64,000 nucleotides of DNA from an uncultured delta proteobacterium (lineage in GTDB: Bacteria > Myxococcota_A > Polyangia > Fen-1088): contig CAWGPW010000016.1 in the NCBI GenBank assembly GCA_963824555.1, forward strand, positions 291,109 through 355,108. The letters are read 5' to 3'. Positions 14,901 through 19,926 of the stretch are shown one piece after another. The notes beneath the pieces were generated by a model. That model had not been told where the DNA came from. It worked only from the letters and a program-made list of their open reading frames with translations, and made no database searches. The first letter of the stretch is position 1; every line of letters starts with the position of its first letter. The translations under genes were made by a program, and so were the position numbers.

Positions 14901-17900
14901 TATTCTGGTGACTGTACCGAAGTCCTTGATTTCCGACTCGAACGTGCTCGTGCCAAAGCCACTTGAGCGAAAATATAGACGATTGCCGTCCAGGCAGACC
15001 CCATCACCATCGTCCGAGCTGACTGACGCTGTATCCAGCTCAACGGGCCTGGAGTACCCATCCTTTGCCACTGTCTTTGGACAGCGGTAGATCATCGAAA
15101 GTCCAGCCAGATTCCATCCTTGACCTGCTATCCCGTCCGGCCCTGAACTGTCGTAAACCAGGCTCAGACTAGGGGCCATGCCTGCGATGCCGGGAGGGAT
15201 GCCAATCGGCACCGTATAAATTGCTTGTCCAGCAGGCCCTACTGTCAGCTGTCCATTTAGGGTTGCATTGAAGTCCGTCCCACTTGTCCAGGATGGCGGA
15301 GCAGATTGTCCAGGATCTGCTGGCTTCGTCTGATAGGGAGACAAATCGGGCTTGAGCATGACGACCACGGTGCCACCGTTACCATCGCTGACCTCGACAC
15401 CGAAACCTGTGCCGATGACTGTCCCCGTCCTTTTCTGCGTCAGGTCGCTGCAATCAGCCGTCTTGCTCTGGCCATCCACGGTCCATGTGATGGTTTGGCT
15501 CGCTGTGCATGTCGGCATGAAGCTTCCGGCGTGGGTCCCGGGCGCCAGTTCATAGGGCGGCGGTGGTTGTGGGTTGTCGACGGGGATCGTGCTGGCACCG
15601 AGAAAGACCTGATTATGATTCGGATGGAAATTCTTGGTGGCACTGCTCTTGTGTCCGAACAGCGCGACCAAAGTGCCATCCATCTCGACGAACCCGTCGT
15701 AGCGAAGAAAGACATTGCACCCCATCTTGTCCACTGGAACCTCGTCAGAGCAATTCCCGTACTCGCATCGCAGGTTCCTGGCGTGTGGCACGCGTCATCG
15801 GCCGTGCAGACGACCGGGTCAAGTCCGGTGCAGGTGCCGCTGCACACATTTGTCGGTCTGCGTGCACAGGTCATTGTCGTCGCAAGTGGTCCCGTCCGGG
15901 GCTGCCTGCTCCCCACACTCCCCGTCTTCCGGGTTGCAAACCGCCTACGTGGCATAGGTCACTGGCTGGGCAGACCTTGGGATTCTGGCCGGTGCAGACG
16001 CCGCTCTCGCAAAGGTCCGTCGGGGTGCACGCGCTCGAGTCATCGCAGGGTAGGTTGTCATCCACGGGCGGGTTGTTGCAGAGGCCCGTGGTGGTATCGC
16101 ATGTACCAACGCCATGGCACTGGTCGGCCGCGGAGCACTGGGTGGTGCGGCTGGCGTCGGGGACGCAGGAGCCGTTCTGGCAGGTGTCACCCCACGTGCA
16201 GGCACTGCCATCGGCGCACACGGTTCCGTTGTAGTATTTGGGGTTGGAGCAGTTGACGGAGCCGGCGCAGCCCATGCACTTGTAGACTTGGTCGGCGACC
16301 TCTTTGCTGGCGGTGCCCCAGGTGTTGAGGCCGGGGCGGTTCACGCCGCACACGTCGTCCGGGCCACCACAGGTCTCGGGGCTGCAGCCGTGGGCGGTGT
16401 AACAGTCCAGGTAGGCGCCGCAGCCGGCGCGGTCGCTCTGCACGGTGGCTTCGTAGGTGCAAAATGCGCCGCAGGTCGTGGCGGCCCAGTTTTGCACGCA
16501 CGCGTTGGTGCTGGGTGCGCTCACGCGAACGTCGTCGGATTCGAAGGATGCCCCCACGCTGCCCACGCCTGCCGAGCCGCTGGTACACGAGGCATCCGTC
16601 TGGGTGAGCAACAGAGCGCCGTTGACGTAGGCCTTGAGCGTGGTGCCCTGCATGTCCAGCTTCACATCGTACCAGTTGCCGGCGCTGACGCCGCCAGGCA
16701 CGGCCACCGGGGTGCCGAGGGTGCTGCTCACGCCGACGACGCGCTTACCGAGCAGAACCTGGCCGTCTCCGCGCAGGCCCACGTAGTAGCCGCAATCGGC
16801 GTTCCAGGTGGCGTCGTAGCGGCCCCACAGGGACACCAGCGCGCTGCTCGACGAAAAGCTGAGCGGCTTGAGGTTCGCCTCGACGGTCGAATCCATCCAG
16901 GCTACGCCACCTTGGGCTTGCGAGATGTAGAGCTGAGACGCGGTGGCGTCGTTCTGGCGGTAGGCCTTGCTGCCGTCGAGCACCACGCTGAAGTTCTGCG
17001 CCGGGCCCTGGCGCACGTTCCAAGCGCTGCCGTTGCCGGTCTCGAAGTTGTCGCAGAATGCCCACGTGCCAACGCACGCGTTGGCCAAGGTGACGGTGCC
17101 GGTCGCCGTCTGGGTGCCCGTCACCGTGGTCGGGATCGTTCCGGTCACCGTGTTGGTCACCGTGCCGGTCGGGTGGTAGGTCCACGACTGCGTCCCGTTC
17201 CCGGTGTTGGAGCCCGTCGCCGTGAGGGTCTTGGTGCCCGTCCCGGCGTAGGTGTGGGTGCCGACCCCTGTCGTGGGATTGGTCGAGTTGGCGGTCACCG
17301 TGACCGTTGCGATGGGCGTTCCAGTCAGTGTCCCGGAGACGGTCACGCTGCCGGTGACGGTCTTGGTCTCGGTCCCGTTGTAGGGGTTCGTGACGGTGTT
17401 CGTGGCGATGGTGCTCTTGGTGCCGACGCTGATGCTGGTCGTGCTGGCCGTGGCGGTCTTGTTGTTCGTGGCCGTGGCGGTTCCGGTCCTGGTCCAAGAG
17501 AAGTAGTAGACATACGCCGTGTCCGTGGCCGTCGCCGTCGCCGATACAGGATAGTAGTGGCTGGCGTCCGTCTGCACCGAGGTCAATGTTCCGGTTCCGG
17601 TCACCGTCGTCGTCGCCGTCGCCGACTGCGTGTGGGTCGTGCTGATCGTGGTGGTGCCTGTGGCCGTGATGGTGGGGGGAACCCCGGAATCGGGGGCGGC
17701 GCCGCCGTCGGGTGGCGACATCTGGTCTTTGATTCGCGCTTCGCGCGAACCGGTTGCCAGGCCGGCCCCGGCCGACTCGGACATGGCTGGGCGCTGGTGT
17801 AGTCCCGGTCGAATTGGGCTGCTCGCCTTGTTGGCCGCAGCCCCAGAAGGCTGTTGCCGCCAACCAAACCAGAATAGAGTGCCGCGTTTGCCCGAATGTC

Positions 17901-18542: not shown

Positions 18543-19926
<1,384 letters not shown>

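Follow-up and report, generated by a model that had tools for sequence, protein, structure and literature searches.

A putative sigma-54 regulatory module with palindromic enhancers, an FHA-type activator bearing a GAHSQA loop and varying secreted cargo in an uncultured Polyangia myxobacterium

The analysis concerns a 64-kb stretch of DNA from an uncultured soil myxobacterium of the Polyangia (64,000 nucleotides (nt) of contig CAWGPW010000016.1, hereafter the window) and, within it, the surroundings of a gene for a putative enhancer-binding protein, which combines FHA and AAA+ domains with a putative Fis-type helix-turn-helix (HTH) domain and carries GAHSQA in its L1 loop (referred to below as the activator). 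Divergently from this gene lie an open reading frame (ORF) for a protein of about 60 amino acids (aa) and a gene for a giant toxin, while a Ser/Thr kinase gene is convergent with it (Table 1). The small ORF and the toxin gene are preceded by sigma-54-type (-24/-12) promoters, named P2 and P1, and each promoter has a palindrome upstream, named enhancer A and enhancer B, respectively. Comparison of related loci supports this layout, i.e., a dyad enhancer, a gap of ~112 bp and a -24/-12 promoter, found first ahead of the small ORF and again ahead of an exchangeable cargo gene. In our judgment, the region rather probably constitutes a sigma-54 regulatory module working through the mechanism proposed in the last section.

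Table 1. Features of the putative regulatory module and positions in the window
Feature	Position	Strand	Remarks
Giant lipoprotein toxin gene, ~3000 aa	8851..17905	minus	Signal peptide and lipobox, Thr-rich repeats, SpvB, FG-GAP, RHS/YD-shell
P1, sigma-54 (-24/-12) promoter TGGCACCAATTTTGCT	17946..17961	minus	Sole exact consensus match in the window
Enhancer B, auxiliary half-site TATGACTGC	18041..18049	minus	Begins 23 bp past the dyad's right half-site
Enhancer B, core dyad TCGGTCATATGACTCG	18064..18079	minus	13/16 positions match the family consensus CGAGTCATATGACTCG
Conserved 60-aa protein gene	18094..18276	minus	Homologues at the same position in L083, L084, L086, L093, L094 and L095
P2, weaker sigma-54-type promoter GGGCTCGGGCATTGCT	18327..18342	minus	GG and TTGC with correct spacing
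Enhancer A, core dyad, window reading CGAGTCCATATGACTCG (17 nt)	18445..18461		16-mer in L001 and L002, 1 mismatch to consensus
Enhancer A, auxiliary half-site TATGACTCG	18476..18484	minus	Pairs with the dyad's left arm as a 12-nt inverted repeat (gap of 8 nt)
TACAAT box, candidate -10	18529..18534	plus	8 nt before the activator ATG
Enhancer-binding protein gene, FHA + AAA+ + putative Fis-type HTH, L1 loop GAHSQA	18543..19926	plus	Pfam; intact L002 copy (P0002) 460 aa
Ser/Thr kinase gene, Pkinase + AAA_16 (STAND-type) + TPR	19954..24027	minus	Convergent with the activator; window copy frameshifted

Promoters and palindromic enhancers in the window

The initial annotation of this DNA had read an exact TGGCAC-N5-TTGCW promoter about 40 nt before the toxin ATG and a second element with canonical GG/TTGC spacing about 50 nt before the 60-aa ORF, both on the minus strand. 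Sequences and coordinates agree with this reading, the gaps being 41 nt from P1 to the ATG at 17905 and 51 nt from P2 to the ATG at 18276. P1 matches the sigma-54 consensus at 11/11 positions and is the only occurrence of TGGCAC-N5-TTGCW in the 64 kb (0.04 expected; 4 of 100 shuffled sequences had one), with a transcription start predicted near 17935. The fixed spacing of the -24 GG and the -12 GC is found in both promoters, exactly in P1 and with GG and TTGC retained in P2. Good ribosome-binding sites and start codons follow P1 as well as P2, and the site of the 60-aa ORF, AGAGGAG, is strong. Two candidates for the region were dropped, i.e., a sigma-70 promoter, for which a simple scan found no -35/-10 pair, and a known leader RNA such as a riboswitch, since the Rfam scan of the region returned no element. 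An integration host factor (IHF) site, read by eye with 1 mismatch to WATCAANNNNTTR in the AT-rich tract 17984-18002, is not supported either, as it is not kept in the orthologous cassettes.

The palindromes CGAGTCATATGAC at 18064 and CGAGTCCATATGACTCG at 18445, as well as the half-site CGAGTCATA at 18476, are present where they had originally been annotated, and the near-identical spacing to the -24 GG (about 112 and 113 bp) was borne out by measurement, with 111.5 bp for P1 and 112.5 bp for P2 between the CATATG centre and the first G of GG. Measured from start to start, enhancer B precedes P1 by 118 bp. Three copies of the 9-mer TATGACTCG are present in the window, all within the 420 bp between 18064 and 18484 (0.17 occurrences expected; none of 100 shuffles reached three). 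In this GC-rich window, ~20 other places have some 9-mer in three copies within 450 bp; most of them are true repeats or GC-rich repeats in coding sequence, so the window alone would leave doubt. The description of two duplicated cassettes holds for the motifs and the spacing, which are common to both, but not for the sequence in between: the spacers are unrelated, and a true tandem duplication of the cassette was dropped as a reading.

The dyad at 18445 stood as well, but its 17-nt form did not. In the two closest counterparts, i.e., L001 (a public contig of 1.2 kb with 99.4% identity to the window) and L002 (a 425-kb metagenome contig, ~93% identical), enhancer A reads as the 16-mer CGAGTCATAGGACTCG. 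The window has another extra base of its own a little downstream of this dyad, and with both bases removed the spacing to P2 is 117 bp. Such differences are frequent: three one-base indels separate the window from L001, and 31 gap openings were counted against L002 in 5.4 kb. One-base indels of the window relative to these contigs were located at 17788, 18442, 18452 and ~19680-19684, and they occur throughout 8.8-24 kb. The toxin, activator and kinase genes of the window are each split into several ORFs. The toxin frame is broken by an extra A at 17788 (L001, which does not have that A, is open from the ATG at 17905), the activator frame near 19680-19684, and the kinase is frameshifted too. 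In L002 the genes for the kinase (1257 aa), the activator (460 aa), the small protein (60 aa) and the toxin (3015 aa) are all intact. The frameshifts are most likely assembly errors; pseudogenes were dropped as their cause, given the intact reading in L001 and L002 and the indel-rich character of the window throughout. Base-exact spacings taken from the window therefore need care.

Conservation of the cassettes and exchange of the cargo

For the comparative analysis, DNA around activator homologues and loci encoding relatives of the small protein were obtained, and ten loci were counted, i.e., the window, L002, L083, L084, L085, L086, L087, L093, L094 and L095 (Table 2). L084 and L085 are one locus assembled twice, and L095 comprises the cassette alone, without an activator gene. 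The orthologous activators are 71-100% identical (where the full length is known), and all counted loci have the dyad, the half-site and GG-N8-TTGC.

Table 2. Related loci with activator identity, cargo, kinase neighbourhood and distance from palindrome start to promoter start
Locus	Activator	Cargo	Kinase	Distance
Window	~93% DNA identity to L002	Rhs/SpvB toxin	Adjacent	P2 119 bp (117 corrected), P1 118 bp
L002	Reference, 100%	Rhs/SpvB toxin	Adjacent	114 and 118 bp
L083	84% to L002	Rhs/SpvB giant protein	Adjacent	118 and 116 bp
L084/L085	76% to L002	GerE regulator and S8 protease	Adjacent	120 and 116 bp (L084)
L086	73% to L002	Lipoprotein and two unknown proteins	Not adjacent	87 (P2) and 116 bp
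L087	71% to L002	Secreted proteins, small ORF lost	Adjacent, fragmented	117 and 117 bp
L093	GAHSQA loop	Thr-rich, toxin-like ORF	Adjacent	110 and 105 bp
L094	GAHSQA loop	Short contig, ends before this position	Short contig, ends before this position	118 bp
L095	No activator gene	Short contig, ends before this position	Short contig, ends before this position	50 bp

The enhancer consensus is a 16-bp palindrome, CGAGTCATATGACTCG, which is perfect at the enhancer A position in L084, L087 and L094 and at the enhancer B position in L084 and L087. A half-site resembling TATGACTCG, about two helical turns away, starts 23-25 bp from a half-site of the dyad, with a gap of 14-16 nt, and it is placed upstream of the dyad in the P2-type cassettes and downstream of it in those of the P1 type. 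The succession of TATGACTCG, 14-16 nt and the dyad is also seen in L002, L084, L086, L087, L093 and L095, and the half-site of enhancer B has its counterpart, (T/G)ATGTGACTCG or GTATGACTCG, at the same offset in the P1 cassettes of L083, L084, L086 and L087. At the P1 position, GG-N8-TTGC is represented by TGGCACAACCATTGCT in L083, TGGCCCGAACCTTGCT in L084, CGGCATGGGTCTTGCC in L086, TGGCGCGCAAGTTGCG in L087 and TGGCGCAAGCCTTGCT in L093; at the P2 position, upstream of the small-ORF homologues, it was found in L002, L083, L084, L086, L093, L094 and L095. GG and TTGC are invariant in the orthologous cassettes aligned.

Of the 16 cassettes measured, 11 have their promoter 116-120 bp from the palindrome; in the remainder this distance is 114, 110, 105, 87 and 50 bp. 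The sequence bridging this distance is no more alike between loci than shuffled DNA (identity of 0.57-0.63 versus 0.57-0.60), the sole exception being the comparison of the window with L002. The motifs and the spacer length have thus been kept while the spacer sequence was randomised, which makes a clear phylogenetic footprint. Two promoters were predicted from the palindrome alone and then found, 116 bp downstream of it in L083, where the giant toxin begins, as a lipoprotein, after TGGCACAACCATTGCT, and 117 bp downstream in L087, in which the activator is 5 kb away from a second cargo cassette. With up to 3 mismatches allowed, the dyad occurs in the fetched related loci only in intergenic cassettes next to the activator, and it is absent from the more distant homologues' loci L088, L090 and L091. 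As the exact half-site was also found nowhere else in the 64 kb, the proviso of the initial annotation that the palindrome might be a common repeat can be set aside. The dyad with its half-site, situated ~105-120 bp upstream in most cassettes and co-occurring with the activator gene, has the character of a putative upstream activator sequence. No second conserved motif was seen between palindrome and promoter in the cassette alignment. Across loci, the motif accompanies the activator rather than the cargo, which makes the FHA activator the candidate binding protein.

The 60-aa protein has no match in Pfam or NCBIfam. An exhaustive HMMER search yielded 18 representatives among 1.84 billion proteins, while a word-based search gave only its own cluster. 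The core of the family reads FAVVPD..QPAALF.DLEDAIEWGL..FG.D.F.IR, and the AlphaFold2 model (predicted local distance difference test score, pLDDT, of 76) has a beta-beta-alpha-beta topology, for which the PDB contained no significant fold match (best E = 2.1). In the distant members L096, L098, L100/L101 and L102 the gene immediately upstream is a different one, and the DNA examined around them revealed no activator loop. Strong sigma-54 promoters, TGGCCCGTCGCTTGCT, TGGTCCGCCGATTGCT and TGGCGCGTGTCTTGCT, are located 150-180 nt upstream of the distant members, and they lend independent support to P2. In a further distant relative, L092, which is only 591 bp long, the GG/TTGC spacing is off by one. 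Since the small protein would be the constant first target of the activator, our guess is that it could be a feedback component or an adaptor.

In contrast to the constant activator and motif, the cargo varies between loci (Rhs toxins, a protease, lipoproteins). The toxin ATG at 17905 opens the lipoprotein signal peptide MKTFGQTRHSILVWLAATAFWGC. SpvB and FG-GAP match the window ORFs directly, while the RHS repeat and TEN_YD-shell matches come from the Pfam list of the L002 counterpart, two of them being faint. In this counterpart (3015 aa), Rhs_assc_core covers residues 2595-2683 (E = 1e-16). RHS/YD repeats, a core and a variable C-terminal domain, by which Rhs polymorphic toxins are recognised, are thus all represented; the C-terminal 350 aa of the toxin, as well as the ORFs downstream of it (7846-8989), where a cognate immunity gene would be expected, matched no Pfam family. 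The 93% DNA identity of the window and L002 spans the kinase, activator and cassettes and reaches ~1.85 kb into the toxin. Below ~16058 (window ~8851-16058 versus L002 12214-19418) the toxin bodies are only 38-42% identical at the protein level, and the GC content falls from 0.67 to 0.59 at this point; judging from this comparison, the toxin body is swapped between close relatives. Together with the unrelated cargo at other loci, the swapped body indicates that the module behaves as a fixed expression dock.

Two loci show further rearrangements. In L087 the enhancer A is kept (7878-7910), while the small ORF and P2 are lost, and the P1 cassette is duplicated at 2860-2977 before another secreted protein, so the local regulon can grow by cassette copying. 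L002 carries, at 9072-9779, an insertion of ~730 bp between the activator start and enhancer A, which is absent from the window (~18492-18497) and leaves the enhancer intact. It contains a 117-aa 23S_rRNA_IVP (four-helix-bundle) gene and is flanked by repeats of the GGCCACGAC/GTCGTGGCC type, similar ones being present at window 25347-25405 and near the activator start of L083.

The activator, its GAHSQA loop and the convergent kinase

The initial annotation had described the divergent gene as encoding an FHA, AAA+ sigma-54-interaction and HTH protein with GAHSQA as the sigma-54-contact loop, and both statements are upheld, the HTH domain as a weak match. Pfam reports FHA, Sigma54_activat, AAA_lid_14 and, weakly, HTH_8. 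The match to PF00158 is strong (E = 2.3e-49), with CapR, FleQ and NtrC as the closest solved structures, and the eight aligned members share GETGVGKE, DEIG, RxDLxxR and NVRELEN (Walker A and B, arginine fingers and sensor II) without exception. The FHA domain (PF00498, E = 2.8e-12) retains Gly57, Arg58, Ser77, His80, Asn100, Gly101 and Thr102 in all eight, among them the Gly-Arg, Ser-x-x-His and Asn residues with which FHA domains bind phosphothreonine. Across the clade, the C-terminal segment GNVAEVARELDRQWAVVWRW hardly varies, and the putative recognition helix DRQWAVVWRW is invariant in the aligned members; the L088 homologue has an Ala-to-Asn change there.

GAHSQA aligns with the GAFTGA of solved enhancer-binding proteins. 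The loop was surveyed in the 120 best homologues, 109 of which were readable by pattern. GAHSQA was found in 77, GAHSTA in 22 and GAHAQA in 6 of these, down to 49% identity; all but two (107/109) begin the loop with GAH, and none has GAFTGA (0/109). In a control of 80 unrelated enhancer-binding protein loci, GAFTGA appeared 58 times, GSFTGA 10 times and His at position 3 never. The full-length homologues form a graded series from 84% down to 49% identity, and their names in public sources put the organism in the Polyangia (Myxococcota). No orthologue was found in the scanned GTDB species representatives, where the matches were generic enhancer-binding proteins with at most 48% identity in the AAA+ domain only, and neither GAHSQA nor GAHSTA occurs as a protein motif in the literature searched. 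From this distribution, GAHSQA is to be regarded as a conserved signature of a large clade and not as decay.

Two more subfamilies with such loops adjoin conserved sigma-54 promoters, in L090 (7860-7960 and 12100-12300) and L107 (4848-4950 and 9100-9290), which share a neighbourhood of citrate synthase, arginase, ribosomal protein S20 and kinase genes. A GAHSTA protein is divergent there from TGGCACGGTCGTTGCC or CGGCACGCCGCTTGCC, a promoter which drives a response-regulator gene (HTH_8), and a conserved, TATGAC-containing dyad, TATGACAGTCAGATCTGACAT(A/C)TGAC, lies ~80 bp upstream of it. A second protein, with GAHSQA, is divergent from TGGTGC-N5-TTGCT, which drives a secreted Cys-containing peptide of ~55 aa. 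The earlier suspicion that GAHSQA may mark the activator as non-cognate is weakened by the clade-wide conservation of the loop and by these two subfamilies paired with sigma-54 promoters. We infer that GAHS(Q/T)A is a working sigma-54 contact and not a defect.

Upstream of the activator ATG, at a distance of 8-9 nt, a GGG(C/T)TAC(T/A)AT block is present in all orthologous loci (L002 and L084-L088 included), and its TAC(T/A)AT box may be the -10 element of a leaderless activator mRNA; the simple sigma-70 scan picked up no promoter at this place. The annotated starts of the homologues P0003 and P0018 look misplaced relative to this block.

The Ser/Thr kinase gene claimed to be convergent with the activator was identified as a Pkinase-AAA_16 gene, which, judging from the intact 1257-aa copy of L002, probably starts near 23730. 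Synteny of the kinase was seen in 6 of the 8 loci with enough flank (L002, L083, L084/L085, L087 and L093 among them), and a kinase also lies directly upstream of the activator homologue P0099. Signalling from the kinase to the FHA domain through phosphothreonine is plausible on the grounds of this arrangement. A second Pkinase-AAA_16-TPR paralogue (1322 aa, intact) is encoded on the minus strand at 26054-30022 of the window, 2 kb from the first; a pattern search of the rest of the window revealed no partner activator loop for it.

A candidate mechanism, its rivals and known systems

We propose that the FHA-AAA+-HTH protein would bind a composite enhancer, made of CGAGTCATATGACTCG and the extra half-site TATGACTCG, as the co-occurrence of gene and motif suggests. 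On the dyad and half-site it would sit as several dimers and oligomerise. Enhancer A, ~117 bp upstream, would serve P2 and thereby the ~60-aa protein, and enhancer B, ~118 bp upstream, would serve P1 and the cargo, which is here the Rhs/Tc-like lipoprotein toxin. The start of the activator itself is likewise preceded by enhancer A, at 60-100 bp, so that autoregulation is possible, and the TAC(T/A)AT box points in the same direction. In line with established knowledge of the family, the AAA+ ring would reach the closed sigma-54 holoenzyme by looping and open the complex by ATP hydrolysis. Gating of the FHA domain by phosphothreonine from the adjacent kinase is probable, considering the synteny and the intact FHA residues.

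Several observations weigh against this mechanism. The activator carries GAHSQA in place of the GAFTGA of canonical NtrC-family members, and we therefore place it in an L1-variant clade which seems to function like them. At position 3 of GAFTGA only Tyr is tolerated, "other replacements" being "inactive" (Francke et al. 2011, PMC3162934). In PspF, Phe85 and Thr86 are reported to contact sigma-54 region I (PMC3467059), and relatives of enhancer-binding proteins without GAFTGA act at sigma-70 promoters (bioRxiv 10.1101/2023.06.06.543975). The engagement of sigma-54 by GAHSQA is the weakest link of the mechanism. The HTH_8 match (E = 4.6e-4, 20.3 bits) is below the Pfam cut-off of 22 bits, and P2 is weak and not significant when taken alone (GG-N8-TTGCW occurs 26 times in the window versus 18 expected). 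The spacing is not absolute, as exemplified by L095 (50 bp), the P2 cassette of L086 (87 bp) and L093 (105 and 110 bp), and the kinase is missing beside the activator in L086 and L088. The L088 homologue, which is 61% identical, has a GAHAQA loop and lies beside another Rhs toxin, has different repeats without the CGAGTCATATGACTCG motif and no clear sigma-54 promoter. No rpoN gene turned up in the DNA examined, where no search was aimed at it.

The loop gives rise to the main rival explanation, according to which the GAHSQA protein binds the palindromes without engaging sigma-54 (as a repressor, an anti-activator or an architectural protein) and another activator, with GAFTGA, fires P1 and P2. 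The published mutagenesis and surveys, which class Phe-to-non-Tyr changes as inactive (PMC3162934, PMC3467059), speak for it, and repressing enhancer-binding proteins are known, e.g., the dual-function PexR (PMC12754779). Nevertheless, we regard it as unlikely, since an unused loop should drift or go, as it did in NtrX and in the NtrC of Caulobacter and Rhodobacter, while here it is kept down to 49% identity. In addition, the palindrome is situated at a classic enhancer distance, which has been kept despite the randomised spacer, no second conserved motif which another activator might use lies between palindrome and promoter, and the same pairing of loop and promoter recurs in three subfamilies.

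If the protein activated transcription independently of sigma-54 and together with a sigma-70-family holoenzyme, in the manner of TyrR, VpsR or the NtrC of Rhodobacter, GG and TTGC would be incidental. Proteins without GAFTGA are indeed known to regulate sigma-70 promoters, but GG-N8-TTGC is invariant in all aligned cassettes amid randomised sequence, P1 matches all 11 consensus positions, no -35/-10 candidate was found and sigma-70 activation of class I or II does not typically use a binding site as far as ~110 bp upstream, which renders this explanation quite improbable. A reading of the motifs as clustered by chance, or as a genome-wide repeat with no bearing on regulation, to which the ~20 other 9-mer clusters of the window might point, is refuted in effect by the restriction of the exact half-site to this region of the 64 kb and of the dyad (up to 3 mismatches) to intergenic cassettes beside the activator, by its absence from L088, L090 and L091, and by the palindrome-based promoter predictions borne out in L083 and L087.

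The proposed sigma-54 module has much in common with NtrC-family proteins acting from dyad enhancers, such as PexR of Myxococcus xanthus and NorR of Escherichia coli, which also have a central AAA+ domain and a C-terminal Fis-type HTH (putative in the present protein). It differs from this type in its sensor (FHA, not GAF), its loop (GAHSQA, not GAFTGA), its operator (CGAGTCATATGACTCG with a half-site, not CACCG-n6-CGGTG) and its cargo, which consists of secreted toxins, hydrolases and a small unknown protein. Activators of the NtrC kind with an N-terminal FHA domain, for which input from Ser/Thr kinases was proposed, were reportedly described in M. xanthus by Jelsbak, Givskov and Kaiser in 2005; in comparison, the present clade comes from uncultured Polyangia and has a fixed Pkinase-AAA_16-TPR partner and a defined operator. 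With PexR the locus additionally shares the divergent regulator gene and several dyads upstream of -24/-12 promoters, with sites near the regulator start (PMC12754779).

A sigma-54-activator AAA+ domain without canonical GAFTGA is also found in TyrR, DhaR, HupR, VpsR, NtrX and the NtrC of Rhodobacter and Caulobacter. As described in the literature, this whole group acts at sigma-70 promoters, and in VpsR, NtrX and the two NtrC proteins the loop is deleted or shortened, whereas here it is of full length and conserved across the clade, and the genes adjoin conserved -24/-12 promoters. Working variants of GAFTGA include TouR (GAYTGA), BkdR (Thr to Ser) and FlgR (Gly5 to Asp) (Francke et al. 2011, PMC3162934). 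Like BkdR, the present loop has Ser at position 4, but in contrast to these single changes three of its six residues are altered (Phe to His, Thr to Ser, Gly to Gln/Thr). Finally, the toxin resembles Rhs and Tc-toxin B-C-like polymorphic toxins in its SpvB, FG-GAP, RHS/YD shell, Rhs_assc_core and variable C-terminal domain, and differs from them in its lipoprotein signal, its Thr-rich N-terminus and the putative module of sigma-54 promoter and FHA activator dedicated to its expression.

Enhancer-dependent sigma-54 promoters and FHA activators of myxobacteria are known kinds; new are the tie between the GAHS(Q/T)A clade and -24/-12 promoters, the defined operator, the constant small-protein target and the swappable secreted cargo. 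We see it as an even call that GAHS(Q/T)A marks an undescribed and widespread FHA clade of Polyangia, which activates sigma-54 without the Phe/Thr pair, is wired to STAND-type kinases and forms a portable dock for swapped secreted weapons. It might do so through a contact made by His, through a sigma-54 region I that has co-evolved with the loop, or by means of an RpoN paralogue of its own. GAFTGA serves as the test for sigma-54 activators, and a Phe-to-non-Tyr change is treated as loss of function; if our proposal is true, the GAFTGA rule is incomplete and genome surveys filtered by it undercount myxobacterial activators. With the operator and promoters defined to the base, the claim is directly testable in vitro. 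The module would also link sensing by a eukaryote-like Ser/Thr kinase to the expression of secreted toxins and hydrolases, and would exemplify cargo exchange behind a fixed regulatory cassette.

Two further observations were made in the flanking DNA. A tRNA-Arg(CCG) gene at 25195-25271 (minus) is followed by a low-GC stretch (~0.50) at 25300-26050, where L002 diverges and has an integrase gene, a UPF0175 gene and a second AAA_14/DUF4143 gene nearby; this may be a genomic-island boundary. At 31905-31920 (plus) there is another sigma-54-like promoter, CGGCACGGTGATTGCT, located 33 nt before a lipoprotein ORF with an Antistasin match (31953-32855). Three copies of GTACCCTCGGAAGGGGTCTA (31639-31770) lie upstream of it, and five inverse copies, CTGGTCCCACTCCGAGGGTAC (30246-30400), are found beyond an unannotated 316-aa ORF (30644-31594, minus); these repeats could be another enhancer or could bound a mobile element.

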